From contig NC_091284.1 of the NCBI RefSeq assembly GCF_032444005.1, forward strand, positions 552,606,001 to 552,670,000: a stretch of 64,000 nt of DNA, read 5' to 3'. Position 1 is the first letter of the stretch; each line of letters begins with the position of its first letter. The translations under genes and the position numbers were made by a program. Source of the stretch: Ranitomeya imitator (lineage: Eukaryota). The notes beneath the pieces are model-generated. The model worked only from the letters and a program-made list of their open reading frames with translations. It did not search any database and had not been told where the DNA came from. Of this stretch, positions 11,325-47,664 are shown piece by piece.

Positions 11325-12088
11325 TAGTGTTGAGCATTCCGATACCGCAAGTATCGGGTATCAGCCGATACTTGCGGTATCGGAATTCCGATACCGAGAT
11401 CCGATACTTTTGTGGTATCGGGTATCGGTATCGGATCAATAGGGATGTGTAAAATAAAGAATTAAAATAAAAAATATTGATATGCTCACCTCTCCGGCGG
11501 CCCCTGGACATCACGCTGGTAACCGGCCGGCTTCTTTGTTTAAAATGAGCGCGTTTAGGACCTGCGAATGACGTCGCGGCTTCTGATTGGTCGCGTGCCG
11601 CTCATGTGACCGCCACGCGACCAATCAGAAGCCGCGACGTCATTCTCATTCACTAAACTCCTAATTCTAGGAATTAAGGACCTGCGAATGACGTCACGGC
11701 TTCTGATTGGTCGCGTGGCGGTCACATGAGCGGCACGCGACCAATCAGAAGCTGCGACGTCATTCGCAGGTCCTAAACGCGCTCATTTTAAACAAAGAAG
11801 CCGGCCGGTTACCAGCGTGATGTCCAGGGGCCGCCGGAGAGGTGAGCATATCAATATTTTTTATTTTAATTTTTTATTTTACACCTCACTATGGATCCCA
11901 GGGCCTGAAGGAGAGTTTCCTCTCCTTCAGACCCTGGGAACCATCAGGATACATTCCGATACTTGATGTCCCATTGACTTGTATTGGTATTGGATATCGG
12001 TATCGGCGATATCCGATATTTTTCGGGTATCGGCCGATACTATCCGATACCGATACTTTCAAGTATCGGACGGTATCGCTCAACACTA
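11325..12088. mobile_element. 764-bp hAT-type MITE with a large internal palindrome
   Basis: Perfect 8-bp TSD GACACCAC (11317-11324, 12089-12096); TIR TAGTGTTGAGC; subterminal GATACC/GGTATC repeats; palindrome 11447-11884. Confidence 0.92.
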
Positions 12089-18539: not shown

Positions 18540-19215
18540 GAGGACTTAATAATGGTGTCCACTCGCATCGATCTTCGGCATGCCGAACGAAGATTAGAGC
18601 GAGCTCAGTGTAGACCAAGGGTTCTGTTAGCCCCAAATTTTTCCAACCCTTTGGAATCTCCGGCTCAGATTAACGAGCCTGTGGAGTCCATGGAGGTATC
18701 TTGAGCAGAACCTAGGTCCCAGTCCATTTGTCCATGCCTGACCTGCTATGTTTGTAGGCAGGTGGGTCAATATGCTTATAAGTGTCCCAAGCAGCAGGGA
18801 AACGGCTGTGTCTAGTTGCTATCGGTGGAGGCTCACTAGACACGGCAGAGGTGTCCTCCAAATTAACCTTTAAGGTGACTCTGTCCTATGGATCGACCTC
18901 TCACATTATGAAGGCTTGCATGGATTCCAGGGCTGAGGGTAATTTTATGTCTTCAACCTTCGCTCAACAGCATGCAATACCCCTGGTGATGCTCACTAAG
19001 CCAGTTACCATCCAAGTGGTTAATGGTTCCGCGCTATCCTCTCAAATCACTCATCAGACCATTCTGCTTACTCTCGTATTTTCTCCAAAACGCCAGGAGA
19101 TAATCTCTTTGTTGGAGGGAATTGATGAGTTACTGTTAGGCATGCCTTGGTTGCGTCACGACTCACCTCACATTGATTGGGCTACTGGGAGCATAAAGGG
19201 ATGGAGTAGGTCCTG
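18540..19215 (+). pseudogene. gag-pol: Host Gypsy (family B), piece 1: gag end and protease; 5' LTR missing
   Basis: Degenerate zinc knuckle CYVCRQVGQYAYKCP, GGGAAAC at 18797-18803, gag stop at 18813-18815, protease MDSRAEGNF and LLLGMPWLRHDSPHIDW in the -1 frame. Confidence 0.85.
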
Positions 19216-19978
19216 TGTTATGATCTGGTGGCCTAGGAGCAGCATGAGACGTACGCTGGAGAAGGTGGTACCTTTACCGACCGCAAACCCTGAACTAGCA
19301 GCGCAACTAGAAGTAGCTGTGGGGGGTACCTAACACTCCCTAGACCCCTCGACACAGCCTAAGAACTAACTACCCCTAAAGACAGAAACGGGAAAACTAT
19401 CTTGCCTCAGAGAAAATTCCCAAAGGATAGACAGCCGCCCACAAATATTGACTGTGAAAGGAGAGAGAAATAACATACGCAGACATGAAATCAGGATTTA
19501 GCATAGGAGGCCATACTAGCTAAAAAGGAAGAATAGGACAGACTACTATGCGGTCAGTATTAAAACACTAGAAAATATCCACCACAGAAAATACAAAACA
19601 CCACATCTGACTAAAGACATGGAGGGTATATCTGCATCTCCAGAGACACAGCTAGGCTGCAAAAAATCCTTCACAGACAAAGCTGGACAAAACAAAACAA
19701 GAAAATGCACAGAATATAAGGTCCACAGCAGGTGGACAGCAAAAACAAGGCCAGAACTTATCTTTGAAGAAATGAACAGCAGACCAGGAGAGACCAAGTA
19801 TGGATGTGAATCCTCCAAAAACAATGGCCAACTGGCACTGACTAAAGGATAAAGCAGGACTTAAATAGCCCAGCCCAAATTGCAAAAAATGGATACACCT
19901 GATAAATGCTGCGATCCAACTACCGCAGCACTACCACTCATAACCACCAGAGGGAGCCCAAGAGCAGAATTCACAACA
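19216..19978 (-). repeat. 3' LTR of the minus-strand chromovirus
   Basis: TG...CA ends; follows the PPT on the minus strand; about 15 differences by eye from 24489-25249. Confidence 0.95.
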
Positions 19979-22900
19979 GTACCCCCCCTTGAGGAGGGGT
20001 CACCGAACCCTCACCAGAGCCCCCAGGCCGATCAGGACGAGCCAAATGAAAGGCACGAACCAAATCGTCAGCATGAACATCGGAGGCAACAACCCAAGAA
20101 TTATCCTCCTGGCCATAACCCTTCCATTTGACCAGATACTGAAGCTTCCGCCTCGAAAAACGAGAATCCAAAATCTTCTCAACCACATACTCCAACTCCC
20201 CATCAATCAACACCGGGGTCGGAGGATCAGCAGAGGGAACAACGGGCACCACATACTTCTGCAACAAAGATCTATGGAAAACATTATGGATGGAAAAAGA
20301 GGCTGGAAGGGCCAAACGAAAAGACACTGGATTGATAATCTCAGAAATCCTATAAGGACCAATAAACCGAGGCTTGAACTTAGGGGAAGAAACCTTCATA
20401 GGAACATGACGGGAAGACAACCAGACCAAATCCCCAACCCGAAGTCGGGAACCAACACACCGACGACGGTTAGCAAAACGCTGAGCCTCCTCCTGAGACA
20501 ACACCAAATTGTCCACCACATGAGCCCAAATCCGCTGCAGCCTGTCAACCACTGAATCCACACCAGGACAATCAGAAGGCTCAACCTGCCCTGAAGAAAA
20601 ACGAGGATGAAAACCAAAATTACAAAAAAAAGGCGAAACCAAGGTAGAACTAGCCCAATTATTAAGGGCAAACTCGGCCAATGGCAAGAACGCCACCCAA
20701 TCATCCTGATCAGCAGACACAAAGCATCTAAAATAAGTTTCCAAAGTCTGATTAGTTCGCTCCGTCTGGCCATTTGTCTGAGGATGAAATGCAGAAGAAA
20801 AAGACAAATCAATGCCCAGCCTAGCACAAATGGCCCGCCGAAACCTAGAAACAAACTGGGAACCTCTATCTGACACAATATTCTCCGGGATGCCAAGCAA
20901 ACTAACCACATGCTGAAAAAACAACGGAACCAAATCAGAAGAGGAAGGCAATTTAGGCAAAGGTACCAAATGAACCATCTTAGAAAACCGGTCTCAAACC
21001 ACCCAGATAACTGACATCCTCTGGGAAACAGGAAGATCTGAAATAAAATCCATAGAAATATGCGTCCAAGGTCTCTCAGGGATCGGCAAAGGCAGAAGCA
21101 ACCCACTAGCACGGGAACAGCAAGGCTTAGCCCGCGCACAAATCCCACAGGACTGCACAAAAGAACGCACATCCCGTGACAAAGAAGGCCACCAAAAGGA
21201 CCTACCAACCAAATCTCTGGTACCAAAAATCCCAGGATGGCCAGCCAACACAGAACAATGAACCTCAGAAATCACTTTACAAGTCCATCTATCAGGAACA
21301 AACAGTTTCCCCACTGGACAGCGGTCAGGTTTATTAGCCTGAAATTCCTGAAGAACCCGTCGTGAATCAGGGGAGATGGCAGAAAGAATCACCCCTTCCT
21401 TCAAAATGCCGACCGGCTCAAGAACCCCAGGGGAATCAGGAAAAAAACTCCTAGAGAGGGCAACCGCCTTAACATTCTTAGTACCAGGAAGGTACGAGAC
21501 CACAAAATCAAAACGGGAGAAAAACAGGGACCATCGAGCCTGTCTAGGATTCAGTTGTTTGGCAGTCTCGAGGTAAATCAGATTCTTATGATCGGTCAAG
21601 ACCACAATACGGTGCTTGGCCGCCTCAAGCCAATGACGCCACTCCTCAAATGCCCACTTCATAGCCAACAACTCCCGATTGCCGACATCATAATTGCGTT
21701 CTGCAGGCGAAAACTTCCGAGAAAAGAAGGCACACGGTTTCATCAAGGAACCATTAGAATTCTTCTGAGACAAAACGGCTCCTGCCCCAATCTCAGACGC
21801 GTCAACCTCAACCTGGAATGGAAGAGAAACATCCGGCTGACGCAACACAGGGGCAGAAGTAAATTGGTGTTTACGCTCCTGAAAGGCAGAAACAGCCGCA
21901 GAGAACCAATTCGTCACATCAGCGCCTTTCTTCGTCAAATCAGTCAGAGGTTTAACCACACTGGAGAAGTTGGCAATGAAACGACTTTAAAAATTAGCAA
22001 AGCCCAAGAATTTCTGAAGGCTCTTCACAGATGTGGGCTGAATCCAATCATGAATGGCCTGAACCTTAACTGGATCCATTTCTATAGATGAGGGAGAAAA
22101 AATGAAGCCCAAAAAAGAAACCTTCTGCACTCCAAAGAGGCACTTCGACCCCTTCACAAACAAAGCATTATCACAGAGGATCTGAAACACCATCCTGACC
22201 TGCTTCACATGAGACTCCCAATCATCGGAAAAAATCAAAATATCATCCAAATATACAACCATGAACTTATCAAGATAACTCCAAAAGGTATCATGCATGA
22301 AGGACTGGAACACAGATGGGGCATTAGAGAGTCCGAATGGCATCACTAGGTATTCAAAATGGCCTTCGGGCATATTAAATGCAGTTTTCCACTCGTCACC
22401 CTGTTTAATACAAATAATATTATATACCCCTCGAAGGTCAATCTTAGTAAACCAGCTAGCCCCCTTAATCCTAGCAAACAAATCAGTAACCAAAGGCAAA
22501 GGGTATTGAAATTTGACCGTGATCTTATTCAAGAGGCGATAATCAATACACGGTCTCAAGGAGACATCCTTCTTGGCAACAAAAAAAAACCTGCTCCCAA
22601 TGGTGAAGAAGATGGCCGAATATGCCCCTTCTCCAAAGACTCCTTAATATAGCTCCGCGTGGCGGCATGTTCTGGCACAGACAGGTTGAAAAGTCGACCC
22701 TTAGGGAACTTACAACCTGGAATCAAGTCAATAGCACAATCATAGTCCCTATGTGGTGGAAGGGAACTGGATTTAGGCTCCTCGAATACATCCTGGAAAT
22801 CTGACAAAAACTCAGGAATTTCAGAAGAGGGGGAAGAGGAAATCGACATCAAAGGAACGTGATCATGAACCCACTGACAACCCCAACTAGTCACAGACAT

Positions 22901-24372
22901 GGATTTCCAATCTAACACCGGATTATGTAGCTGTAACCATGGAAAACCCAGCACAATATCATCATGCAAATTATGCAACACCAGAAAATGACAATCTTCC
23001 TGATGGGCTGGCGCCATGCGCATGGTCAGCTGTGTCCAAAACTGAGGTTTATTTTTAGCCAACGGTGTAGCATCAATCCCCCTTAAAGGAATAGGGTTCT
23101 GCAAAGGCTGCAAGGGGAAACCTCAATGTCTGGCAAATTCTAAGTCAGAGCGGCGCCTGAATCCACAAATGCCATGACAGAAAATGACGATAATGAGCAG
23201 ATCAAGGTCACAGATAACAGAAATTTTGGTTGTACAGTACTGATGGTAACAGAACTAGCGATTCTCTTTGTACGCTTAGGGCAATCAGAAATAACATGAG
23301 CAGAATCGCCGCAGTAAAAACACAACCTATTCTGACACCTAAATCCTTGTCGTTCAGCTCTAGGCAAAATCCTATCACACTGCATAGGCTCAGGGCTCCT
23401 CTCGGAGGACAACTCCACAGTGTGCACAACTCTGCGCTCGCGCAAGCGCCGATCAATCTGAATGGCCAGAGACATAGAATCAATCAGACCAGCATGCGTG
23501 GGGATCCCCACCATAACATCTTTAACGGATTCAGAAAGACCCTTTCTGAAAATTGCCATCAAGGCATCCTCATTCCATTTAGTTAGTACAGACCATTTTC
23601 TAAATTTCTGGCAATACGATTCTGCCGCTTCTTGACCCTGACACAGGGCCAACAAGATCTTCTCAGCTTGATCCACAGAATTAGGCTCATCATACAATAA
23701 CGCCAATGCTTGAAAGAAAGAATCAACATTAAAGGGAACCTGTCACCTGAATTTGGCGGGACCAGTTTTGGGTCATATGGGCGGAGTTTTCAGGTGTTTG
23801 ATTCACCCTTTCCTTACCCGCTGGCTGCATGCTGGCCGAAATATTGGATGGAAGTTCATTCTCTGTTCTCCGTAGTACATGCCTGCGCAAAGCAAGATTA
23901 CCTTGCGCAGGCATGTACTATGGAGGACAGAGAATTAACTTCAATCCAATATTTCGGCCAGCATGCAGCCAGCGGGTAAGGAAAGGGTGAATCAAACACC
24001 TGAAAACTCCGCCCATATGACCCAAAACTGGTCCCGCCAAATTCAGGTGACAGGTTCCCTTTAAGCAAAGCAGGATTGCCAGATTCCAGGGAAAATGCCC
24101 AATCCTGTGGGTCACCACGCAGCAAGGATATGATGATTTTAACCTGCTGAATGGGATCACCAGAAGAACGGGGTCTCAATGCAAAAAACAGTTTACAATT
24201 ATTTTTGAAACTCAAAAATTTGTATCTGTCACCAAAAAATAAATCAGGAGTGGGAATCTTAGGTTCTAAGGCAGGAGTCTGAATAATAAAATCTGAAATA
24301 CCCTGTACCCTAGCAGCAAGCTGATCCACATGAGAAACTAACTCCTGAACATTCATGTTAATACTAGGTTCC
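19979..24372 (-). pseudogene. gag-pol: gag-pol of the minus-strand chromovirus (gag-PR-RT-RH-IN-chromodomain), frameshifted
   Basis: ORFs 23898-24518, 23140-23706, 22556-23113, 21987-22559, 20994-21959, 19971-20978 tile the domains in order. Confidence 0.93.
23733..24060. mobile_element. 328-bp T2/Kolobok-type MITE inserted in gag
   Basis: TTAA at 23729-23732 and 24061-24064; near-perfect full-length inverted repeat starting AGGGAACCTGTCACC; removal restores gag NPALLNVDSFFQAL. Confidence 0.95.
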
Positions 24373-24488
24373 GTAGCCACCCAGAGATTAAGAGGGAAGA
24401 GAACACAGAATAGACTGGGGAAAAAATGGCTCAAGAGCTTCCTTCCCTTGTTCTGAGATGCATTTAACTCATTGTTGGCCAGTTGTAC

Positions 24489-25249
24489 TGTTATGATCTG
24501 GTGGCCTAGGAGCAGCATGAGACGTGCTCTGGAGAAGGTGGTACCTTTACTGACCGCAAACCCTGAACTAGCAGCGCAACTAGAAGTAGCTGTGGGGGGT
24601 ACCTAACACTCCCTAGACCCCTCGACACAGCCTAAGAACTAACTACCCCTAAAGACAGAAGCGGGAAAACTATCTTGCCTCAGAGAAAATTCCCAAAGGA
24701 TAGACAGCCGCCCACAAATATTGACTGTGAAAGGAGAGGGAAATAACATACGCAGACATGAAATCAGGATTTAGCATAGGAGGCCATACTAGCTAAAAAG
24801 GAAGAATAGGACAGAGTACTATGCGGTCAGTATTAAAACACTAGAAAATATCCACCACAGAAAATACAAAACACCACATCTGACTAAAGACATGGAGGGT
24901 ATATCTGCATCTCCAGAGACACAGCTAGGCTGCAAAAAATCCTTCACAGACAAAGCTGGACAAAACAAAACAAGAAAATGCACAGACTACAAGGTCCACA
25001 GCAGGTGGACAGCAAAAACAGGGTCAGAACTTAACTTTGAAGAAATGAACAGCAGACCAGGAGAGACCAAGTATGGATGTGAATCCTCCAAAAACAATGG
25101 ACAACTGGCACTGACTAAAGGATAAAGCAGGACTTAAATAGCCCAGCCCAAATTGCAAAAAATGGATACACCTGATACATGCTGCGATCCAACTACCGCA
25201 GCACTACCACTCATAACCACCGGAGGGAGCCCAAGAGCAGAATTCACAA
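24489..25249 (-). repeat. 5' LTR of the minus-strand chromovirus (outer 2 bp missing or mutated)
   Basis: Direct repeat of 19216-19978; TATTTAA box at 25134-25140 on the minus strand. Confidence 0.93.
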
Positions 25250-25436
25250 TTGTCCTCTGAGGGACAGTGTCTTAGGGCCCAAGATAAGATTGGACCATCT
25301 GAGGTCGCTTCAGATCTTACTCCTCTTCCTAAGCACTATTGACAATATGCAGAAATGTTTTCTAAAAAGTCTGCGAAGACTCTTAATCCTCATCGCCCCT
25401 ATAATTGCCCCATAGACCTCATTCCAGGGACAGAAC
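25250..25436 (+). pseudogene. Host Gypsy (family B), piece 2 (PR-RT linker)
   Basis: Reads LPKHY*QYAEMFSKKSAKTLNPHRPYNCPIDLIPGTE and continues PPHGRVYHL after 41117. Confidence 0.85.
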
Positions 25437-26201
25437 TGTTGTGAATTCTGTTACCGAACTCCCTCCTGTGGTCATGAATGGTACTTCGGCGAGTTCTGTC
25501 CATGGACTCCCTCTGGTGGCTGTGAGTGGAGCTGCTGCTTCTGAGGTTCCTTCCACAGGTGACTTGGTTTATTCTTTGGCTGGCTGCTCTATTTAACTCC
25601 ACTCAGATCGTTACTCCATGCCAGCCGTCAATGTTCTTGTACTGGTTCAGTTCGCTCTTGGATCTTTCTGGTGACCTGTCTACTCCAGCAGAAGCTAAGT
25701 CCCTGCTAGTTAATTATTTGTTCATTGTTTTCTTGTCCAGCTTGCTATCATGATTTTGTCCTGCTAGCTGGAAGCTCTGGGATGCAGAGTGGCACCTCCG
25801 CACAGTGAGTCGGTGCGGAGGTCTTTTTGCACACTCTGCGTGGTCTTTTGTAGTTTTTTGTGCTGACCGCAAAGATACCTTTTCTATCCTCAGTCTGTTT
25901 AGTAAGTCTGGCCTCCCTTTGCTGAAACTTGTTTCATTCCTGTGTTTGTGACTTTCATCTTAACTCACAGTCAATATATGTGGGGGGCTGCCTTTTCCTT
26001 TGGGGAATTTCTCTGAGGCAAGGTAGGCTTTATTTTCTTTCTCTAGGGCTACTTAGCTCTTAGGCTGTGAAAAGGCATCTAGGCAGCGTTAGGTACGCTC
26101 CACGGCTATTTCTAGTGTGTGTGATAGGATTAGGGGTTGCGGTCAGCAGAGCTCCCACCATCAGGTCGTTCCAGGTGCTCCTAACCACCAGGTCCATAAC
26201 A
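25437..26201 (+). repeat. Array LTR1 (765 bp)
   Basis: TGTTGTGAATTC...GGTCCATAACA; TATTTAA at 25590-25596. Confidence 0.95.
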
Positions 26202-26338
26202 GTACAGCTGGCCCAAAGTATTAATGCATCTCAATAGAGGGATAAGAGAAGTTCTGAGACCTATTTTTTTTTCTCTGCAGTGTGTTTTGTCTTTCTTTTC
26301 CCCTTAACCTCTGGGTGGTTCAGGACACAGGTGTAGAT

Positions 26339-29300
26339 ATGGACATTCAAGGTCTGTCCTCTTGTGTGGATCATCTCACTGTAAGGGTACAAAACATTCA
26401 AGATTTTGTGGTTCAGAATCCGATGTTAGAGCCTAGAATCCCAATTCCTGATTTGTTTTCTGGGGATAGATCTAAGTTCCTGAATTTCAAAAATAATTGT
26501 AAACTGTTTCTTGCTTTGAAACCCCGCTCCTCTGGTGACCCCGTTCAACAAGTAAAAATCATTATTTCTTTGTTGCGTGGTGACCCTCAAGACTGGGCAT
26601 TTTCCCTTGCGCCAGGAGATCCTGCATTGCGTGATGTAGATGCGTTTTTTCTGGCGCTTGGATTGCTTTATGATGAACCACATTCAGTGGATCAGGCAGA
26701 GAAAATCTTGCTGGCTTTGTGTCAGGGTCAGGATGAAGCGGAGGTATATTGTCAGAAGTTTAGAAAGTGCTCTGTGCTTACTCAGTGGAATGAGCGTGCC
26801 CTGGCGGCAATTTTCAGAAAGGGTCTTTCTGAAACCCTTAAGGATGTCATGGTGGGATTTCCCACGCCTGCTGGTCTGAATGAGTCTATGTCCTTGGCCA
26901 TTCAGATCAATCGGCGCTTGCGGGAGCGCAAAGCTGTGCACCATTTGGTGGTATTCTCTGAGCATAGGCCTGAGCCTATGCAATGTGATAGGACTTTGAC
27001 CAGAGCTGAACGGCAAGAACACAGACGTCAGAATGGGCTGTGTTTTTACTGTGGTGACTCCACTCATGCTATCTCCGATTGTCCTAAGCGCACTAAGCGG
27101 TTCGCTAGGTCTGCCACCATTGGTACGGTACAGTCTAAATTTTTTTTGTCCGTTACTCTGATTTGCTCTTTGTCATCCTATTCTGTTATGGCATTTGTGG
27201 ATTCAGGCGCTGCCCTGAATTTGATGGACTTAGAGTTTGCCAGGCGCTGTGGTTTTTTCTTGAAGCCCATGCAGTATCCTATTCCATTGAGAGGAATTGT
27301 TGCTACGCCTTTGGCCAAGAATAAGCCTCAGTACTGGACTCAATTGACCATGTGCATGGCTCCTGCACATCAGGAGGATATTCGCTTTTTGGTGTTGCAT
27401 AATCTGCATGATGTGGTCGTTTTGGGGTTGCCATGGCTACAGGTCCATAATCCAGTATTGGATTGGAAATCTATGTCTGTGGCCAGCTGGAGTTGTCAAG
27501 GGGTACATGGTGATGTTCCATTGCTGTCAATTTCGCCTTCCACTCCTTCTGAAGTCCCTGAATTTTTGTCGGATTACCGGGATGTTTTTGATGAGCCCAA
27601 ATCCAGTGCCCTACCTCCTCATAGGGATTGCGATTGTGCTATTAATTTGATTCCTGGTAGTAAGTTTCCTAAGGGCCGACTGTTCAATTTATCGTGCCAG
27701 AGCACGCCGCTATGCGGAGTTATATAAAGGAATCCTTGGAGAAAGGTCATATTCGCCCGTCGTCATCACCGTTGGGAGCAGGGTTCTTTTTTGTGGCCAA
27801 GAAGGATGGTTCTTTGAGACCTTGTATTGATTACTGCCTTCTTAATAAGATCACAGTCAAATTTCAGTACCCTTTGCCGCTGCTGTCTGATTTGTTTGCT
27901 CGGATTAAGGGGGCTAGTTGGTTCACCAAGATAGATCTTCGAGGGGCGTATAATCTTGTGCGTATTTAACAGGGCGATGAATGGAAAACAGCATTTAATA
28001 CGCCCGAGGGCCATTTTGAGTACCTGGTTATGCCATTCGGGCTTTCTAATGCTCCATCTGTATTTCAGTCCTTTATGCATGACATCTTCCGAGAGTACCA
28101 GGATAGATTCATGATTGTATATTTGGATGATATTTTGGTCTTTTCGGATGAATGGGAATCTCATGTAAAGCAGGTCAGAATGGTGTTCCAGGTCCTTCGT
28201 GCGAATTCCTTGTTTGTGAAGGGGTCAAAGTGTCTCTTTGGAGTTCAGAGGGTTTCATTTTTGGGTTTCATTTTTTCCCCTTCTACTATCGAGATGGACC
28301 CTGTTAAAGTTCAGGCCATTTATGATTGGACTCAGCCGACATCTGTGAAGAGCCTGCAGAAGTTCCTGGGCTTTGATAATTTTTACCGTCGCTTCATCGC
28401 TAATTTTTCTAGTGTTGCTAAACCGTTGACTTATTTTACCAAGAAAGGTGCTGATGTGGTCAATTGGTCCTCTGCGGCTGTAGAGGCTTTTCAGGAGTTG
28501 AAGCGTCGTTTTTCTTCTGCCCCTGTGTTGTGCCACCCAGATGTTTCGCTCCCTTTTCAGGTCGAGGTTGATGCTTCTGAGATTGGAGCAGGGGCTGTTT
28601 TGTCGCAAAGAAGTTCTGATGGCTCGGTGATGAAACCATGTGCCTTCTTTTCTAGAAAGTTCTCGCCTGCTGAGCGCAATTATGATGTTGGCAATCGAGA
28701 GTTGTTGGCCATGAAGTGGGCATTCGAGGAGTGGCGACATTGGCTTGAAGGAGCCAAGCATCGCGTGGTGGTTTTGACGGATCACAAGAATTTGACTTAT
28801 CTCGAGTCTGCCAAATGGTTGAATCCTAGACAGGCTCGATGGTCGCTGTTTTTCTCCCATTTTGATTTTGTGGTTTCGTACCTTCCGGGCTCTAAGAATG
28901 TGAAGGCTGATGCCCTGTCATGGAGTTTTGTGCCTGACTCTTCGGGTGTTCCTGAGCCAGCGGGTATTCTCAAAGAGGGGGTAATTTTGTCTGCCATCTC
29001 CCCTGATTTGCGGGTGCTGCAGAAGTTTCAGGCTGATAGACCTGACCGTTGTCCAGCGGAGAAACTGTTTGTCCCTGATAGATGGACTAGTAGAGTTATC
29101 TCTGAGGTTCATTGTTCGGTGTTGGCTGGTCATCCTGGAATCTTTGGTACCAGAGATTTGTTGGCTAGATCCTTTTGGTGGCCTTCTTTGTCACGGGATG
29201 TGCGTTCTTTTGTGCAGTCCTGTGGGACTTGTGCTCGGGCTAAGCCCTGCTGTTCTCATGCCAGTGGGTTGCTTTTGCCCTTGCCGGTCCCAAAGAGGCC

Positions 29301-30396
29301 CTGTACGCATATTTCCATGGATTTTATTTCAGATCTCCCTGTCTCTCAAAGGATGTCGGTCATTTGGGTGGTTTGTGATCGCTTCTCTAAGATGGTCCAT
29401 TTGGTACCCTTGTCTAAATTGCCTTCCTCCTCTGATTTGGTGCCATTGTTTTTTCCAGGATGTGGTTCGTTTGCATGGCATTCCGGAGAACATCATCTCG
29501 GACAGAGGTTCCCAGTTTGTTTCGAGGTTTTGGCGGTCCTTTTGTGCTAAGATGGGCATTGATTTGTCTTTTTCTTCGGCTTTCCATCCTCAGACAAATG
29601 GCCAAACCGAACGAACTAATCAGACTTTGGAAACATATCTGAGATGCTTTGTTTCTGCTGATCAGGATGATTGGGTGTCCTTCTTGCCTTTGGCTGAGTT
29701 CGCCCTTAATAATCGGGCCAGCTCGGCTACTTTGGTTTTGTCGTTTTTCTGTAATTCTGGTTTTCATCCTCGTTTCTCTTCAGGGCAGGTTGAGCCTTCG
29801 GACTGTCCTGGTGTGGATACTGTGGTGGACAGGTTGCAGCAGATTTGGACTCATGTGGTGGACAATTTGACATTGTCCCAGGAGAAGGCTCAACGTTTCG
29901 CTAACCGCCGGCGCTGTGTTGGTCCCCGACTTCGTGTTGGGGATTTGGTTTGGTTGTCGTCTCGTTATGTTCCTATGAAGGTTTCCTCTCCTAAGTTTAA
30001 GCCTCGTTTCATTGGTCCGTATAAGATTTCTGAAGTTCTCAATCCTGTGTCATTTTGTTTGGCCCTTCCAGCTTCTTTTGCCATCCATAATGTGTTCCAT
30101 AGGTCGTTATTGCGGAGATACGTGGCGCCTATGGTTCCCTCCGTTGATCCTCCTGCCCCGGTGTTGGTCGAGGGGGAGTTGGAGTATGTGGTGGAGAAGA
30201 TTTTGGATTCTCGTATTTCGAGACGGAAACTCCAGTACCTGGTCAAGTGGAAGGGTTATGGTCAGGAAGATAATTCCTGGGTTTTTGCCTCTGATGTTCA
30301 TGCTGCCGATCTAGTTCGTGTCTTTCATTTGGCTCGTCCTAATCGGCCTGGGGGCTCTGGTGAGGGTTCGGTGACCCCTCCTCAAGGGGGGGGTAC
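26339..30396 (+). pseudogene. gag-pol: gag-pol copy 1 (inactivated)
   Basis: CCHC knuckle CFYCGDSTHAISDCP, DSGA, YLDD, RNase H, integrase, chromodomain; frameshift ~27693, TAA 27967-27969, frameshift ~29455. Confidence 0.95.
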
Positions 30397-31161
30397 TGTT
30401 GTGAATTCTGTTACCGAACTCCCTCCTGTGGTCATGAATGGTACTTCGGCGAGTTCTGTCCATGGACTCCCTCTGGTGGCTGTGAGTGGAGCTGCTGCTT
30501 CTGAGGTTCCTTCCACAGGTGACTTGGTTTATTCTTTGGCTGGCTGCTCTATTTAACTCCACTCAGATCGTTACTCCATGCCAGCCGTCAATGTTCTTGT
30601 ACTGGTTCAGTTCGCTCTTGGATCTTTCTGGTGACCTGTCTACTCCAGCAGAAGCTAAGTCCCTGCTAGTTAATTATTTGTTCATTTTTTTCTTGTCCAG
30701 CTTGCTATCATGATTTTGTCCTGCTAGCTGGAAGCTCTGGGATGCAGAGTGGCACCTCCGCACAGTGAGTCGGTGCGGAGGTCTTTTTGCACACTCTGCG
30801 TGGTCTTTTGTAGTTTTTTGTGCTGACCGCAAAGATACCTTTTCTATCCTCAGTCTGTTTAGTAAGTCTGGCCTCCCTTTGCTGAAACTTGTTTCATTCC
30901 TGTGTTTGTGACTTTCATCTTAACTCACAGTCAATATATGTGGGGGGCTGCCTTTTCCTTTGGGGAATTTCTCTGAGGCAAGGTAGGCTTTATTTTCTTT
31001 CTCTAGGGCTACTTAGCTCTTAGGCTGTGAAAAGGCATCTAGGCAGCGTTAGGTACGCTCCACGGCTATTTCTAGTGTGTGTGATAGGATTAGGGGTTGC
31101 GGTCAGCAGAGCTCCCACCATCAGGTCGTTCCAGGTGCTCCTAACCACCAGGTCCATAACA
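30397..31161 (+). repeat. Array LTR2 (shared between units)
   Basis: Preceded by a PPT; nearly identical to LTR1. Confidence 0.95.
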
Positions 31162-31298
31162 GTACAGCTGGCCCAAAGTATTAATGCATCTCAATAGAGG
31201 GATAAGAGAAGTTCTGAGACCTATTTTTTTTTCTCTGCAGTGTGTTTTGTCTTTCTTTTCCCCTTAACCTCTGGGTGGTTCAGGACACAGGTGTAGAT

Positions 31299-34200
31299 AT
31301 GGACATTCAAGGTCTGTCCTCTTGTGTGGATCATCTCACTGTAAGGGTACAAAACATTCAAGATTTTGTGGTTCAGAATCCGATGTTAGAGCCTAGAATC
31401 CCAATTCCTGATTTGTTTTCTGGGGATAGATCTAAGTTCCTGAATTTCAAAAATAATTGTAAACTGTTTCTTGCTTTGAAACCCCGCTCCTCTGGTGACC
31501 CCGTTCAACAAGTAAAAATCATTATTTCTTTGTTGCGTGGTGACCCTCAAGACTGGGCATTTTCCCTTGCGCCAGGAGATCCTGCATTGCGTGATGTAGA
31601 TGCGTTTTTTCTGGCGCTTGGATTGCTTTATGATGAACCACATTCAGTGGATCAGGCAGAGAAAATCTTGCTGGCTTTGTGTCAGGGTCAGGATGAAGCG
31701 GAGGTATATTGTCAGAAGTTTAGAAAGTGCTCTGTGCTTACTCAGTGGAATGAGCGTGCCCTGGCGGCAATTTTCAGAAAGGGTCTTTCTGAAACCCTTA
31801 AGGATGTCATGGTGGGATTTCCCACGCCTGCTGGTCTGAATGAGTCTATGTCCTTGGCCATTCAGATCAATCGGCGCTTGCGGGAGCGCAAAGCTGTGCA
31901 CCATTTGGTGGTATTCTCTAAGCATAGGCCTGAGCCTATGCAATGTGATAGGACTTTGACCAGAGCTGAACGGCAAGAACACAGACGTCAGAATGGGCTG
32001 TGTTTTTACTGTGGTGACTCCACTCATGCTATCTCCGATTGTCCTAAGCGCACTAAGCGGTTCGCTAGGTCTGCCACCATTGGTACGGTACAGTCTAAAT
32101 TTTTTTTGTCCGTTACTCTGATTTGCTCTTTGTCATCCTATTCTGTTATGGCATTTGTGGATTCAGGCGCTGCCCTGAATTTGATGGACTTAGAGTTTGC
32201 CAGGCGCTGTGGTTTTTTCTTGAAGCCCATGCAGTATCCTATTCCATTGAGAGGAATTGTTGCTACGCCTTTGGCCAAGAATAAGCCTCAGTACTGGACT
32301 CAATTGACCATGTGCATGGCTCCTGCACATCAGGAGGATATTCGCTTTTTGGTGTTGCATAATCTGCATGATGTGGTCGTTTTGGGGTTGCCATGGCTAC
32401 AGGTCCATAATCCAGTATTGGATTGGAAATCTATGTCTGTGGCCAGCTGGAGTTGTCAAGGGGTACATGGTGATGTTCCATTGCTGTCAATTTCGCCTTC
32501 CACTCCTTCTGAAGTCCCTGAATTTTTGTCGGATTACCGGGATGTTTTTGATGAGCCCAAATCCAGTGCCCTACCTCCTCATAGGGATTGCGATTGTGCT
32601 ATTAATTTGATTCCTGGTAGTAAGTTTCCTAAGGGCCGACTGTTCAATTTATCGTGCCAGAGCACGCCGCTATGCGGAGTTATATAAAGGAATCCTTGGA
32701 GAAAGGTCATATTCGCCCGTCGTCATCACCGTTGGGAGCAGGGTTCTTTTTTGTGGCCAAGAAGGATGGTTCTTTGAGACCTTGTATTGATTACTGCCTT
32801 CTTAATAAGATCACAGTCAAATTTCAGTACCCTTTGCCGCTGCTGTCTGATTTGTTTGCTCGGATTAAGGGGGCTAGTTGGTTCACCAAGATAGATCTTC
32901 GAGGGGCGTATAATCTTGTGCGTATTTAACAGGGCGATGAATGGAAAACAGCATTTAATACGCCCGAGGGCCATTTTGAGTACCTGGTTATGCCATTCGG
33001 GCTTTCTAATGCTCCATCTGTATTTCAGTCCTTTATGCATGACATCTTCCGAGAGTACCAGGATAGATTCATGATTGTATATTTGGATGATATTTTGGTC
33101 TTTTCGGATGAATGGGAATCTCATGTAAAGCAGGTCAGAATGGTGTTCCAGGTCCTTCGTGCGAATTCCTTGTTTGTGAAGGGGTCAAAGTGTCTCTTTG
33201 GAGTTCAGAGGGTTTCATTTTTGGGTTTCATTTTTTCCCCTTCTACTATCGAGATGGACCCTGTTAAAGTTCAGGCCATTTATGATTGGACTCAGCCGAC
33301 ATCTGTGAAGAGCCTGCAGAAGTTCCTGGGCTTTGATAATTTTTACCGTCGCTTCATCGCTAATTTTTCTAGTGTTGCTAAACCGTTGACTTATTTTACC
33401 AAGAAAGGTGCTGATGTGGTCAATTGGTCCTCTGCGGCTGTAGAGGCTTTTCAGGAGTTGAAGCGTCGTTTTTCTTCTGCCCCTGTGTTGTGCCACCCAG
33501 ATGTTTCGCTCCCGTTTCAGGTCGAGGTTGATGCTTCTGAGATTGGAGCAGGGGCTGTTTTGTCGCAAAGAAGTTCTGATGGCTCGGTGATGAAACCATG
33601 TGCCTTCTTTTCTAGAAAGTTCTCGCCTGCTGAGCGCAATTATGATGTTGGCAATTGAGAGTTGTTGGCCATGAAGTGGGCATTCGAGGAGTGGCGACAT
33701 TGGCTTGAAGGAGCCAAGCATCGCGTGGTGGTTTTGACGGATCACAAGAATTTGACTTATCTCGAGTCTGCCAAACGGTTGAATCCTAGACAGGCTCGAT
33801 GGTCGCTGTTTTTCTCCCGTTTTGATTTTGTGGTTTCGTACCTTCCGGGCTCTAAGAATGTGAAGGCTGATGCCCTGTCAAGGAGTTTTGTGCCTGACTC
33901 TTCGGGTGTTCCTGAGCCAGCGGGTATTCTCAAAGAGGGGGTAATTTTGTCTGCCATCTCCCCTGATTTGCGGGTGCTGCAGAAGTTTCAGGCTGATAGA
34001 CCTGACCGTTGTCCAGCGGAGAAACTGTTTGTCCCTGATAGATGGACTAGTAGAGTTATCTCTGAGGTTCATTGTTCAGTGTTGGCTGGTCATCCTGGAA
34101 TCTTTGGTACCAGAGATTTGTTGGCTAGATCCTTTTGGTGGCCTTCTTTGTCACGGGATGTGCGTTCTTTTGTGCAGTCCTGTGGGACTTGTGCTCGGGC

Positions 34201-35356: not shown

Positions 35357-36121
35357 TGTTGTGAATTCTGTTACCGAACTCCCTCCTGTGGTCATGAATG
35401 GTACTTCGGCGAGTTCTGTCCATGGACTCCCTCTGGTGGCTGTGAGTGGAGCTGCTGCTTCTGAGGTTCCTTCCACAGGTGACTTGGTTTATTCTTTGGC
35501 TGGCTGCTCTATTTAACTCCACTCAGATCGTTACTCCATGCCAGCCGTCAATGTTCTTGTACTGGTTCAGTTCGCTCTTGGATCTTTCTGGTGACCTGTC
35601 TACTCCAGCAGAAGCTAAGTCCCTGCTAGTTAATTATTTGTTCATTTTTTTCTTGTCCAGCTTGCTATCATGATTTTGTCCTGCTAGCTGGAAGCTCTGG
35701 GATGCAGAGTGGCACCTCCGCACAGTGAGTCGGTGCGGAGGTCTTTTTGCACACTCTGCGTGGTCTTTTGTAGTTTTTTGTGCTGACCGCAAAGATACCT
35801 TTTCTATCCTCAGTCTGTTTAGTAAGTCTGGCCTCCCTTTGCTGAAACTTGTTTCATTCCTGTGTTTGTGACTTTCATCTTAACTCACAGTCAATATATG
35901 TGGGGGGCTGCCTTTTCCTTTGGGGAATTTCTCTGAGGCAAGGTAGGCTTTATTTTCTTTCTCTAGGGCTACTTAGCTCTTAGGCTGTGAAAAGGCATCT
36001 AGGCAGCGTTAGGTACGCTCCACGGCTATTTCTAGTGTGTGTGATAGGATTAGGGGTTGCGGTCAGCAGAGCTCCCACCATCAGGTCGTTCCAGGTGCTC
36101 CTAACCACCAGGTCCATAACA
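35357..36121 (+). repeat. Array LTR3 (shared between units)
   Basis: No difference from LTR2 that I could see. Confidence 0.95.
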
Positions 36122-36258
36122 GTACAGCTGGCCCAAAGTATTAATGCATCTCAATAGAGGGATAAGAGAAGTTCTGAGACCTATTTTTTTTTCTCTGCAG
36201 TGTGTTTTGTCTTTCTTTTCCCCTTAACCTCTGGGTGGTTCAGGACACAGGTGTAGAT

Positions 36259-39200: not shown

Positions 39201-40315
39201 TGCCGGTCCCAAAGAGGCCCTGTACGCATATTTCCATGGATTTTATTTCAGATCTCCCTGTCTCTCAAAGGATGTCGGTCATTTGGGTGGTTTGTGATCG
39301 CTTCTCTAAGATGGTCCATTTGGTACCCTTGTCTAAATTGCCTTCCTCCTCTGATTTGGTGCCATTGTTTTTTCCAGGATGTGGTTCGTTTGCATGGCAT
39401 TCCGGAGAACATCATCTCGGACAGAGGTTCCCAGTTTGTTTCGAGGTTTTGGCGGTCCTTTTGTGCTAAGATGGGCATTGATTTGTCTTTTTCTTCGGCT
39501 TTCCATCCTCAGACAAATGGCCAAACCGAACGAACTAATCAGACTTTGGAAACATATCTGAGATGCTTTGTTTCTGCTGATCAGGATGATTGGGTGTCCT
39601 TCTTGCCTTTGGCTGAGTTCGCCCTTAATAATCGGGCCAGCTCGGCTACTTTGGTTTTGTCGTTTTTCTGTAATTCTGGTTTTCATCCTCGTTTCTCTTC
39701 AGGGCAGGTTGAGCCTTCGGACTGTCCTGGTGTGGATACTGTGGTGGACAGGTTGCAGCAGATTTGGACTCATGTGGTGGACAATTTGACATTGTCCCAG
39801 GAGAAGGCTCAATGTTTCGCTAACCGCCGGCGCTGTGTTGGTCCCCGACTTCGTGTTGGGGATTTGGTTTGGTTGTCGTCTCGTTATGTTCCTATGAAGG
39901 TTTCCTCTCCTAAGTTTAAGCCTCGTTTCATTGGTCCGTATAAGATTTCTGAAGTTCTCAATCCTGTGTCATTTTGTTTGGCCCTTCCAGCTTCTTTTGC
40001 CATCCATAATGTGTTCCATAGGTCGTTATTGCGGAGATACGTGGCGCCTATGGTTCCCTCCGTTGATCCTCCTGCCCCGGTGTTGGTCGAGGGGGAGTTG
40101 GAGTATGTGGTGGAGAAGATTTTGGATTCTCGTATTTCGAGACGGAAACTCCAGTACCTGGTCAAGTGGAAGGGTTATGGTCAGGAAGATAATTCCTGGG
40201 TTTTTGCCTCTGATGTTCATGCTGCTGATCTAGTTCGTGTCTTTCATTTGGCTCGTCCTAATCGGCCTGGGGGCTCTGGTGAGGGTTCGGTGACCCCTCC
40301 TCAAGGGGGGGGTAC
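36259..40315 (+). pseudogene. gag-pol: gag-pol copy 3 (inactivated)
   Basis: Same domains and lesions, plus a private 1-bp deletion at ~38966. Confidence 0.95.
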
Positions 40316-41111
40316 TGTTGTGAATTCTGTTACCGAACTCCCTCCTGTGGTCATGAATGGTACTTCGGCGAGTTCTGTCCATGGACTCCCTCTGGTGGCT
40401 GTGAGTGGAGCTGCTGCTTCTGAGGTTCCTTCCACAGGTGACTTGGTTTATTCTTTGGCTGGCTGCTCTATTTAACTCCATTCAGATCGTTACTCCATGC
40501 CAGCTGTCAATGTTCTTGTACTGGTTCAGTTCGCTCTTGGATCTGTCTGGTGACCTGTCTACTCCAGCAGAAGCTAAGTCCCTGCTAGTTAATTATTTGT
40601 TCATTGTTTTCTTGTCCAGCTTGCTATCATGATTTTGCCTTGCTAGCTGGAAGCTCTGGGATGCAGAGTGGCACCTCCGCACCGTGAGTCGGTGCGGAGG
40701 TCTTTTTGCACACTCTGCGTGGTCTTTTTGTAGTTTTTTGTGCTGACCGCAAAGATACCTTTTCTATCCTCAGTCTGTTTAGTAAGTCTGGCCTCCCTTT
40801 GCTGAAACTTGTTTCATTCCTGTGTTTGTGACTTTCATCTTAACTCACAGTCAATATATGTGGGGGGCTGCCTTTTCCTTTGGGGAATTTCTCTGAGGCA
40901 AGGTAGGCTTTATTTTCTTTCTCTAGGGCTAGTTAGCTCTTAGGCTGTGAAGAGGCGTCTAGGCAGCGTTAGGTACGCTCCACGGCTATTTCTAGTGTGT
41001 GTGATAGGATTAGGGGTTGCGGTCAGCATAGCTCCCACTTCCCAGAGCTTGTTCTGTGTTAGTTTAACCATCAGGTTGTTCCGGGTGCTCCTAACCACCA
41101 GGTCCATAATA
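40316..41111 (+). repeat. Array LTR4 (796 bp, diverged from LTR1-3)
   Basis: Has a 30-bp segment (TTCCCAGAGC...GTTTAAC) absent from LTR1-3 and about a dozen substitutions. Confidence 0.95.
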
Positions 41112-44100
41112 CAGAACCTCCTCACGGGCGTGTCTACCATTTGTACCTTCTGTAGACTCAGGCTATGTCAGAGTATATCAAGGATAATCTGGTGAGGGGG
41201 TTTATTGATAAGTCGGTGTCTCCTGCTGGGGCGAGGTTCTTCTTTATCCAGAAGAAGAACGGGGAATTTCAATCTTGCATTGATTAAAAGGGTTTGAATT
41301 CCATTACCATTAAGAACAAATAACCTTTGCCACTCCTTTCTGAGTTGTTTGACAGACTGCTAGGATATTTTCTAAACTAGATCTGCGTGACAGCTATAAC
41401 TTAATACATATTCAAGAAGGAGACGAATGGAAAACTGCGTTTAATACTCGGGACGGTCATTATGAGTACCTGGTAATGCCATTTGGTCTCTCTAATGCTC
41501 CAGCCATCTTGCAGGATTTCGTCAATGATATTTTCTGGGAGATGTTTCCCACATCCGTAGTCGTCTACCTGGACGACATACTTAATTTTGTCTCCCAATC
41601 TGGATACTCACCGTAGAGATGTGGCCAGGGTCCTTGAACTTTTGCGCACCAACTCTCTCTACGCCAAACTAGAGAAGTATGTGTTTGAGCAAGAGTCCCT
41701 ACCATTCCTTAAGTACATCATTTCACCCCAAGGTTTGGCTATGGATCCTGCCAAGGTGGAATTGGTATTGAATTGGCAGGAGCCACATTCCCTTAACGCG
41801 GTTAAGCGCTTCATGGGGTTTATTAACTACTACCACCAGTTAATCCCCCACTTCTCTACTCTGGCAACTCCCTTCGTAGCCCTCACCAAGAAGGGAGCTA
41901 ACACTAAGCAATGGACTGAGGAGGTCTCCAAGGCCTTTGCTTCCTTGAAGTCCCACTTTGTCAGGGCCCCTGTGCTACATCAGCCTGATGTGGATAAACC
42001 CTTCATCCTGGAGGTGGATGCCTCTTCTGTCAGTATATGAGTTGTCCTTTATCAAAAGGATGCTCACATATGCTAACACCCTTGTTTCCTTTTCTCTAAG
42101 ATCATTTCACTGGCTGAGAGGAATTATTTTATTGGGGACAGGGGGTTACTGGCCATGAAGTTGGCATTCTCAGAGTGGAGATATCTCCTAGAGGGAGATT
42201 GGCATCCCTTCCAAGTATTCACGGATGACAAAAATCTGCTCTATCTGCAGACGGACCAACAGCTGAATTCTCGCCAGGCCAGGTGTTCCTTATTCTTCTC
42301 CCGATTGAATGTCACTTTTCATTTTCTTTCTTGGGAGAATAAACTGTGTGCTGATGCCCTATCCCGTTCCATATTATCATCCAAGGAAAGGGACGAGTCA
42401 CGGCTAATTGTCCCCTCGAAGAGTCTCCGAATGGTGGCTCTGGTCTTGGTCGAGCAGGTGCCTCCGGGCAAATCTTATGTTACAAGCTAACCTGCAGCTG
42501 GAGGTTCTCTCTTGGGCTCACACTTCTAAGTTAGGTGGGCAATTTGGCATCAAGAGGACTACTGAGCTTTTGGAGAGGTCTTAATGGTGGCCGCAGATTG
42601 TGTGTGACGTGAGGGACTACGTTCATGCTTGTGTATCTTGTGCCAGGAATCAGCCTCCCTAGCTGAGACCCATGGGCTTGCTTCGTCATTTGCCATAGGA
42701 TGATAGGCCATGGGAGATGGTCGGGATGAACTTTTTGGTGTACCTGCACAAGTCCCGTAACAACACAGTTATTTGGGTAGTCACCAACCAATTCGTCAAG
42801 ATAATTACGATGAATCCAGCAGGAATGCAGTAAAATCAATTAATTTATTTTTTTATTTAAAAAAAGGAGGGGTTATATCCTATGGTACACCACTTGTAAA
42901 TAAGTTATAATTTCAGCATTATGCACATATGGCAGCGTTCTTCCGATGCGTTTCGACTGACATCTTAATCATGATTAAGACGTCAGTCGAAACACGACGG
43001 AAGAACGCTTTTTTAAATGAAGAAATAAATTCATTGATTTTACTACATTCCTGCTGGATTCATCGTATTTTTCTGTGGACTGAGTGCTCAACTTTTCCGT
43101 TCAGGAACAGATGTGGAACAGCCGATATTCAGGTGAGCTATTTTTTGTTTTTTTTGTGGATTTCTCCAAGATGGTACATCTGGTCCCCCTTCCATGTGTA
43201 CCCTTGGCACGTGCTTTGGCAGTACTTTTCGTGAAGCATATTTTTCACCTTCACAGGATGCCTGACAAGATTGTCAGTGACCGGGGTCCCCAGTTCATCT
43301 CTCGGTTCAGAAGAGAGCTTTGTCAGTTTCTCAATATTGAGATCAATCTCTACCGTGTATCATCCTGAGACAAATGACCTGGTGGAGAGGGCCACTGGTC
43401 ATGTACCTTTGGCATTTTGTCTTTGCCAGGCATGATGACTGGGCATCCTTAGTGCATTGGGTGGAGATTGCTCTAAATAATTCCATCTTCGATTCCACAA
43501 GCCATTACTCCTTAACTATGGTCAGCATCCGCGTGTTCCCGTGCCCATGCCCATCTCATCTTACAACCCTAGGGTGGTGGACTGGGCAGTAGAGGCTCAT
43601 GACATTTGGGACTGCATGAAAGATGCCATTAGGGATTCTAAGGAAAGAATGAGGAACTCCGCCGACGTGCACTGTCATCCCGCTCTGGTCTTCGCCCCTG
43701 GGGATTTATTGCAGCTCTCGACTCATAACATAAGACTGCGTGTGGAGTCCACTAAATTTGGTCCCTGCTATCTAGGTCCTTTCAAGGTCCTGCAACAAGT
43801 GAAAGCGGTAGTCTATTGTCTTAGTCTTCCACCACATCTAAACATCACCGACACCTTCCATGTGTCTTTGTTGAAACCCGTTTATACGACCTGGTCTTCT
43901 TGGACTCCTGCTGGGAGCTCGGATACATCTCTGGACGAATTTGGAGTCAATGCCATTGTCTGATCCAAGGTGGTACGTGGCAAAAATTTTTTGGGGGTGA
44001 ACTGGAAAGGTCATGGCCAGCGGATAGGACCTTGGAGCCTATAAAGCACATTTGTACCCCCAGCTTATTGCGGCTTTCGAGCGTGGTGAACATCCCCGGG

Positions 44101-44119
44101 GGATGTTAGCGGGGGGTAA
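41112..44119 (+). pseudogene. Host Gypsy (family B), piece 3: RT, RNase H, integrase, chromodomain remnants and PPT
   Basis: YLDD (tacctggacgac ~41567), RNase H FILEVDASSV and FQVFTDDKNL, integrase IVSDRGPQF, PPT GCGGGGGGTAA at ~44109-44119; heavily decayed. Confidence 0.88.
42803..43161. mobile_element. Penelope-like insertion with inverted arms and two hammerhead-like motifs
   Basis: Degraded 11-bp TSD TTCGTCAAGAT (42792-42802) / TTCTCCAAGAT (43162-43172); inverted repeat 42806-43067 centred on CATG (42970-42973). Confidence 0.7.
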
Positions 44120-46403: not shown

Positions 46404-47664
46404 CCTATTTCCCACCTAAGACATATCCATACGTCCCTGTGACCTGGACCTTAATGACCTAGAATGTATGGATATGTCTCAGTGATTTTCCAAGCCCACA
46501 GGCTGTGCATGCATGACCGCCGCCAGGTGTTAGCTGATTTTAACAGCTGGCACCCTGCACTCAGTACTTGGAGCAGTCCTGCACTGCTCCTGGCACTTTA
46601 AACTTCTAAATGCTGAGACTGAACTGGATCGCAGCATTTCAGCAGGAGGCAAAGGAAAGACAGCCCCTTTGCCGTTGTATCGGAGGCTTTGTGACATCAT
46701 CGCAGGTTCTCGATCATTTCCATGGTGGCCCAATGTCATCATGACAAGAAATGGGTCACCAGAGCTAGCAAATTTGCTTTATCATGCTCAGAGCATGATC
46801 AGCATCTGCCTGTCAGTGCAGCGCAGTTATGCTATACAAGCTATCAGCCTGCAAAACACGAAAGTAGGACAAAGTAGTAGGACAAAGTAAAAAAAGTTAA
46901 AGAAAGTTTAAAATGTTTGTACTGTATATATATTGTACCCATGAATAAATATTTTTATGGAAGAAATATTTAAACAATAAAAGTACACATATTTGATATT
47001 GCCATGTCAGGAACGAACTGACCTATGAAACTATCCCACTATTTAACCCAATACATAAATAAATAAAAAACAAGGCAAAAACTAAGCTTTATCATCATAC
47101 CACCTAACAAAAAGTGGAATAAAATGTGATTAAAAAAAAAGAAATTAACATTGTACAGTTGAAAATGTCTTCTTGTCCCGCAAAAAAACAAACCATCATA
47201 CAGCTCCATAAGCGGAAAAATAAAAAAGTTATAGCTTTCAGAATAAAATGATGCAAAAATAATTTTTTCTATAAAATAGCTTTGATTGTGTTAAAGCCCC
47301 AAAACATAAAAAAGATATAAATGAGATATCACTGCAATCATACTGACTCAAAGCATAAAGCTTCCTTATCGAATGTACCACATGCGGAATGACACAAACC
47401 CCCCTCCCCAAACAATTCCTGAATTGCTGTTTTTTGTCCATTCTGCCTCCCAAAAATCGGAATAGAAAGCGATCAAAAATGTTATGTATCTAAAAATGGT
47501 ACAAATAAAGACTTCAACTCGTCCCGCAAAATACAAGCCCATACATGAGTGTGGGCTAAAATGTGGAAAAATTGTAGCTCTTAAAATCTGGTGATGCAAA
47601 AACTATTTTTTGCAATAAAAAGCTTTTTTTAAGTGTGTGACAGCAGCCAAACATAAACCTAATA
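46404..47664. mobile_element. piggyBac-like non-autonomous sequence, left of the Tc1
   Basis: Begins after TTAA (46400-46403); AT-rich subterminal blocks inverse to 51506-52400. Confidence 0.55.

Follow-up and report, generated by a model that had tools for sequence, protein, structure and literature searches.

Layout of the locus

The window, by which we mean the whole 64,000-nucleotide stretch of Ranitomeya imitator DNA that we analysed, contains three nested LTR retrotransposons: a minus-strand element, a plus-strand tandem array and a third, older element (Table 1). The array consists of four LTRs and three internal regions with a period of 4960. Its internal units lie 9-10 substitutions apart in about 4197 nt, LTR1-3 differ from one another by 0-1, and LTR4 stands apart by 13-14 plus indels; the two LTRs of the minus element are separated by 14 substitutions in 761 nt. 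Array and minus element point in opposite directions, with about 180 nt between them, and both interrupt the older chromovirus at its PR-RT junction; the RT segment of this older element is 45% identical to that of the array. This older host has no recognisable 5' LTR in the window, and hence no junction at which a self-complement could be sought.

The elements show a number of smaller peculiarities. A 167-nt inverted repeat (96%, arms 2 nt apart) interrupts the gag of the minus element at 23729-24064, and a similar hairpin lies at 11433-11898. The U3 of the array LTR (25437-25540) holds two related units of about 45 nt and the minus element only one; joints with public contigs at 25249-25207 suggest that copies of the minus subfamily elsewhere also vary in the number of this unit. 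Neither AATAAA nor ATTAAA occurs in LTR1, LTR4 or the minus 5' LTR; the model of fish sushi LTRs given in PMC3601003 has a clear AATAAA. Rfam returned no match in 19000-31500, and no tRNA genes were found in the window.

Table 1. Features of the two elements and their older host, in window coordinates
Feature	Position	Strand	Remarks
Array LTR1 (5' LTR)	25437..26201	+	
Array LTR2	30397..31161	+	1 substitution relative to LTR1
Array LTR3	35357..36121	+	identical to LTR2 across 763 aligned nt
Array LTR4 (3' LTR)	40316..41111	+	13-14 substitutions and 31 extra nt relative to LTR1-3
TATTTAA in LTR1	25590..25596	+	copies at 30550, 35510, 40469
Predicted self-primer GCCAGCCGT in LTR1	25620..25628	+	private C at 25626; copies 30580-30588, 35540-35548
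Perfect self-primer copy GCCAGCTGT in LTR4	40499..40507	+
Primer-binding site (PBS) ACAGCTGGC, array	26204..26212	+	at +3 past LTR; copies 31164-31172, 36124-36132
Candidate flanking-helix strand TGGGATGCA	25778..25786	+	pairs with 26225-26233
Coding region, array unit 1	26258..30394	+	gag, protease, RT, RNase H, integrase, Tf2-type SH3, chromodomain; pol in several frames
Polypurine tract (PPT), array	30385..30393	+	followed by TAC and next LTR; copy 40304-40312
Target-site duplication CAGAAC, array	25431..25436	+	second copy 41112-41117
5' LTR, minus element	24489..25251	-	direct repeat with 19216-19978; first two bases AA, not TG
3' LTR, minus element	19216..19978	-	primer copy 19828-19836 has G at nt 9
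TATTTAA in minus 5' LTR	25134..25140	-
Predicted self-primer GCCAGTTGT, minus element	25101..25109	-	31 nt below first T of TATA-like box
Primer-binding site ACAACTGGC, minus element	24478..24486	-	at +3, after GT spacer 24487-24488
Counterpart of candidate flanking helix, minus element	24906-24913 with 24455-24462	-
gag-PR-RT-RNase H-integrase-chromodomain region, minus element	19989..24425	-	several frames
Polypurine tract, minus element	19982..19989	-	followed by TAC and 3' LTR
Target-site duplication GAGGAC, minus element	25252..25257	-	second copy CAGGAC 19210-19215
Older host chromovirus	18851-19215, 25252-25436, 41112-44119		LTR-like from about 44120

Family of the two elements

In both elements we recognise gag, protease, RT, RNase H and integrase, together with an SH3 of the Tf2 type and a chromodomain; every copy has its pol spread over several frames. 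The order PR-RT-RNase H-integrase, which a Ty3/gypsy chromovirus requires, is present, Pfam SH3_Tf2-1 and Chromo are found in both, and the chromodomain (PF00385) lies at the C-terminus of integrase with E 3.5e-12 in the array and 7.7e-14 in the minus element. Among 73 gag-PR homologues, 69 are named as Ranitomeya imitator (best 91% identity), three as Oryzias and one as another fish; a search of the PDB had Ty3 at the top, and none of its matches is named as an RT of the Tf1 group. The elements share 444 of 713 aligned LTR positions, and their RT segments are 86% identical. As judged by sequence, both are chromodomain-bearing Ty3/gypsy retrotransposons of the vertebrate type and form two subfamilies.

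A self-complement at the LTR junction

In both elements the longest perfect complement to the LTR is exactly 9 nt long and starts at +3 after the terminal CA. The predicted self-primer begins at a T-G step; the complement stops at GCCAG on its 5' side, and we see no alternative primer site. The earlier note had placed the complement about 30 nt below TATTTAA; we measure 30 nt in the array and 31 nt in the minus element, and TATTTAA is the sole TATA-like box that we found in these LTRs. All five motifs which that note described lie where it put them, the minus-element pair being written in the orientation of the element. The complement is perfect in two of the six LTRs of the window: LTR1-3 share one mismatch, and the primer copy in the minus 3' LTR reads GCCAGTTGG (19828-19836), with a mismatch at primer nt 9.

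The GT spacer that follows the LTR is mirrored by an AC between polypurine tract and LTR (AC-TG...CA-GT), and this symmetry of the ends places the 3' end of the primer at +3, as with the TGG-type relatives, in which TGG runs from +3. Between the subfamilies the TATA box is identical at 7/7 positions and the primer 9-mer at 8/9; the flanks agree at 19/39 upstream, 11/23 between box and primer and 30/60 downstream. The PBS is moreover the best primer site in each leader (-12.7, with the next at -10.4, and -15.0, the sole site among those listed). A further copy of ACAGCTGGC at 46543 was set aside, as it is not beside any LTR.

How often would such a complement arise by chance? We made 20000 dinucleotide shuffles per LTR, taking for the array LTR4 against the PBS of unit 3. 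A 9-nt complement anywhere in the shuffled LTR, at any offset from +1 to +6, turned up in 532 and 920 of 20000 shuffles (2.7-4.6%), and one starting within TATA+20 to +40, a range picked after seeing the data, in 15 of 20000 for each element.

Folding of the leader

When the whole leader was folded, the primer duplex had a probability of 0.89-1.0 except at nt 7 in array unit 1, and of 0.01 in the minus element. For the distant loci described below, the values were 0.02 (L004), 0.08 (L024) and 0.75-1.0 (L034), and the rejected locus L039 reached 0.99. Whole-leader folding, as modelled here, is diagnostic neither for nor against the primer duplex. Tf1 is described as needing two helices that flank the primer helix (10.1101/2022.12.06.519325). 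A candidate 3' helix, of 9 and 8 bp, is found at matching places in the two subfamilies, with 5 and 18 of 150 shuffles as good; for the U5 helix, 105 and 56 of 150 shuffles did as well, as expected by chance.

The mismatch in LTR1-3 is private

That the array's 5' LTR has lost perfect pairing, another claim of the earlier note, is borne out, and the loss can be recognised as a private change. We compared public contigs from 4 of 23 listed runs over 24400-26290. Position 25626 is T at at least 99.9% of depth in all four (113, 99, 31 and 15 contigs), the runs being labelled with three organisms; since T is near-fixed in the public contigs, the C in LTR1-3 is a private change, and it was carried along with the 5' LTR during formation of the array. 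The other differences between LTR1-3 and LTR4 (25804, 26052, 26072 and a 30-nt gap near 26157) are likewise minority or private in these contigs, and among 40 of the 215 variants no further change falls within the four 9-mers. Run X12, labelled with another organism, has near-fixed differences close by, at 25638, 26220, 25074 and 25122.

With the private C the primer duplex is weaker, at -11.4 kcal/mol instead of -16.1. The three mismatched primers of LTR1-3 go back to a single private mutation, which tandem duplication spread, and they represent one event. Judging from the shared private changes, a unit whose 5' LTR already bore the mutation would have been duplicated locally once the element had inserted, giving the array, and our comparison points to a duplication that came long after insertion.

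Self-complements in distant chromoviruses

When metagenome contigs were searched with the gag-PR alignment, 36 loci were found, which fall into 19 clusters; none of the 36 is a copy of the frog family. An unanchored scan of 24 of these loci produced many chance self-complements of 9-10 nt; distant loci were counted only if the LTR end was fixed by other features. Three loci carry a self-complement at such an end. L024, with direct repeats and a 5-nt target duplication (CACAG), has one of 10 nt at +3 (49 of 3000 shuffles as good); L004, with a PPT and a 7-nt terminal inverted repeat, has one of 9 nt at +3 (11/3000); and L034, with a PPT and a 5/6 inverted repeat, has one of 9 nt at +4 (4/3000). 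For L004 and L034 the LTR end was first spotted in the complement scan and confirmed afterwards. The three self-complements are mutually different in sequence and unrelated to the frog primer, and each lies below an AT-rich box; chromodomains are present in L004 and L024.

Three further loci in two clusters (L021, L031 and L032) have TGG at +3 and no self-complement longer than 6 nt, the LTR ends of L031 and L032 having been set by the TGG motif itself. The other 14 clusters offered no usable junction, L008 being partial: its complement of 9 nt lies at +3 behind a CA, on a contig without an LTR start, and this locus was left out of the count. The self-complement of L039 was rejected, as it has no TATA-like box and its cluster contains TGG-type junctions. 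In an RT tree of 20 rows, five self-complement rows split from seven TGG rows with 100/100 support, where six of the seven TGG rows are labelled by cluster, eight rows are unlabelled and no named reference is included. A pattern scan of viral contigs gave a single match, which we attribute to chance, and an RT scan of the same kind of contig gave two weak loci (28%).

Discussion

Our analysis makes it very probable that both subfamilies prime reverse transcription in the manner of Tf1, from the 5' end of their own RNA, as the earlier note had proposed. Position, geometry, conservation, clade and the distant relatives all support this reading, in which the start and cleavage steps are predicted. 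By analogy with Tf1, transcription would start at the G of GCCAG, nt 1-9 of the RNA would pair with the PBS some 580-620 nt downstream, and the element's RNase H, the domain for which is present, would cut near nt 9/10 to release the primer. RT would then extend the 3' U of the primer across the two spacer bases into U5. Terminal trimming of two bases by integrase occurs in retroviral integration, and the integrase would here trim the two extra bases. Several results count against self-priming. The complement, at 9 nt, is shorter than the 11-nt primer of Tf1 (PMC7175516) and falls below the cut-off in the survey of PMC6317226, which required at least 10 nt of complement; it is perfect in only two of the six LTRs of the window; whole-leader folding gives the duplex a low probability in the minus element, L004 and L024; and of the helices that flank the Tf1 primer helix, the 3' helix is here a candidate and the U5 helix does no better than shuffled sequence.

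Could the pairing be real and yet serve another end? It might have a structural role alone, holding the 5' leader closed for the sake of packaging, dimerisation or the control of translation; or the RNA start or the primer register might differ from the one we propose. Such a reading would sit well with a start that is only predicted, with the length of the leader (about 580-620 nt), with the alternative start sites described for Tf2 (PMC5341516) and with a folding result that disfavours the duplex in the minus element. However, the pairing stops exactly at +3, where the primer 3' end must lie, and at its other end it goes no further 5' than GCCAG, at the T-G step 30-31 nt below the TATA-like box, with no alternative primer site in evidence. 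We therefore regard this reading as improbable, although it is the one that survives best.

Slightly less probable still is that a host tRNA or tRNA fragment primes, either from a TGG at +8 or through internal tRNA sequence at +3, the complement in the LTR being incidental. We agree with the earlier note that neither element has a tRNA-type TGG beside the 5' LTR: none is present within 0-5 nt of it, the span used to define the self-priming group in PMC6317226. A TGG does sit at +8 in both elements, and half-tRNA priming exists, in copia lineages only as PMC6317226 has it. Yet only TGGCC is common to the two elements, the 18 nt from TGG being identical at 8/18, and because the TGG lies at +8 and is unconserved past 5 nt, a tRNA-type primer site appears unlikely from the junctions themselves. 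Moreover, the TGG-type relatives L021, L031 and L032 have their TGG at +3, a primer set at +8 would leave the two ends unequal, with 7 extra nt at one and 2 at the other, and the three distant relatives have different sites, each of which matches its own LTR.

Least probable of the three, and largely refuted already, is that an ancestor shared by both subfamilies had the complement by chance and passed it on: the 2.7-4.6% of shuffles with a 9-mer somewhere in the LTR, the many spurious 9-10-nt matches of the unanchored scan (among them L039, which even folds at 0.99) and the non-independence of subfamilies with 86% identical RT leave some room for it, but it is opposed by the placement relative to TATA box and LTR end, by a 9-mer conserved beyond its flanks and bearing a paired change, by the near-fixation of T in the four runs and by the recurrence of self-complements with new sequences in three distant elements.

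Returning to self-priming, we ask what the difference between the two primers means. The earlier note saw compensatory covariation. One paired change is indeed present, the base pair in question being C-G in one subfamily and U-A in the other; but it is a single pair in two lineages, with a G.U intermediate. By simple arithmetic, the chance that one change in each 9-mer lands on the same pair is near 1 in 9, so the paired change alone is weak evidence. The minus primer on the array PBS pairs at 9/9 positions through G.U (-13.7 kcal/mol), so that a tolerated route between the subfamilies exists; the reverse cross fails to pair at 9/9 (-9.4).

The paired change may have been templated rather than selected. 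Roughly half of Tf1 cDNA retains a complete PBS copy at its 3' end (PMC11042837), and the same paper cites another whose title says that the self-primer is not removed. It is possible, though we would stop short of calling it probable, that each cycle renews the PBS from the primer, in which case a single mutation, not a pair, is enough for the apparent covariation. A C-to-T change in the 3' LTR would pass to both LTRs, the changed primer would be tolerated on the old PBS as a G.U pair, and the plus strand, reading the unremoved primer, would copy the change into the PBS. If the PBS is indeed templated by the primer, it would become understandable that self-primers can change freely within the group and still keep their pairing. 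A very high-copy frog family with diverging subfamilies is a natural data set in which the G.U intermediate might be caught.

How do these elements compare with known systems? They resemble Tf1 and Tf2 of Schizosaccharomyces pombe (and Tj1, Tosmo1-3 and Tcry1) in being chromoviruses with no tRNA site, in having a PBS just past the 5' LTR that is complementary to the RNA 5' end (here predicted) below a TATA box, and in forming tandem copies that share an LTR (described for the yeast elements in PMC7175516, 10.1101/2022.12.06.519325 and PMC11042837). They differ from Tf1 in that the primer has 9 nt rather than 11, that start and cleavage are here predictions, and that of the three-duplex 'pretzel' of Tf1 we have, beside the primer helix, a candidate 3' helix; and the frog array apparently arose by duplication after insertion, not by cDNA annealing as in Tf1/Tf2. 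They are of the same type as the chromodomain Ty3/gypsy elements of fish and amphibians, a group stated to self-prime. Vertebrate chromoviruses are placed in a V-clade, with Amn-san in Xenopus tropicalis (PMC2774666); Amn-san is reported in PMC4131045 as the most abundant LTR family of that frog and as the only elements with a chromodomain in Silurana. For the Tcn1 clade of fungi and mosses, self-priming is predicted in PMC6317226 from the same kind of complement, the differences being the hosts and the at least 10 nt demanded there.

Self-priming has already been published as the distinguishing mark of the Tf1/sushi group, including its vertebrate members (PMC4600332, PMC6317226, 10.1101/2022.12.06.519325; Butler et al. 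2001 as cited there), and what is known of the group itself is unchanged by our results. The literature within reach of our search, which Butler et al. 2001 was not, held nothing on the primer of this frog family. The mechanism has been proven in fission yeast alone and is elsewhere predicted from sequence; our analysis contributes a clean case from an amphibian, and indicates where transcription of an abundant frog family probably starts and how long its primer is likely to be.

Both target-site duplications read as 6 nt and end in AC beside the LTR start, and the gap between PPT and LTR is also AC; each duplication could be a true 6 nt, or 4-5 nt plus a retained cDNA end. The 9-nt primer, possibly together with a 6-nt target duplication, may mark a vertebrate variant. 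In all the distant complements (L004:190-198, L024:5616-5625, L034:4614-4622 and L008:23-31) the first base is an A preceded by a run of pyrimidines (CTT or TTC); in the frog self-primers it is a G preceded by T. A first base that follows a pyrimidine, in distant and frog self-primers alike, fits the initiator pattern.
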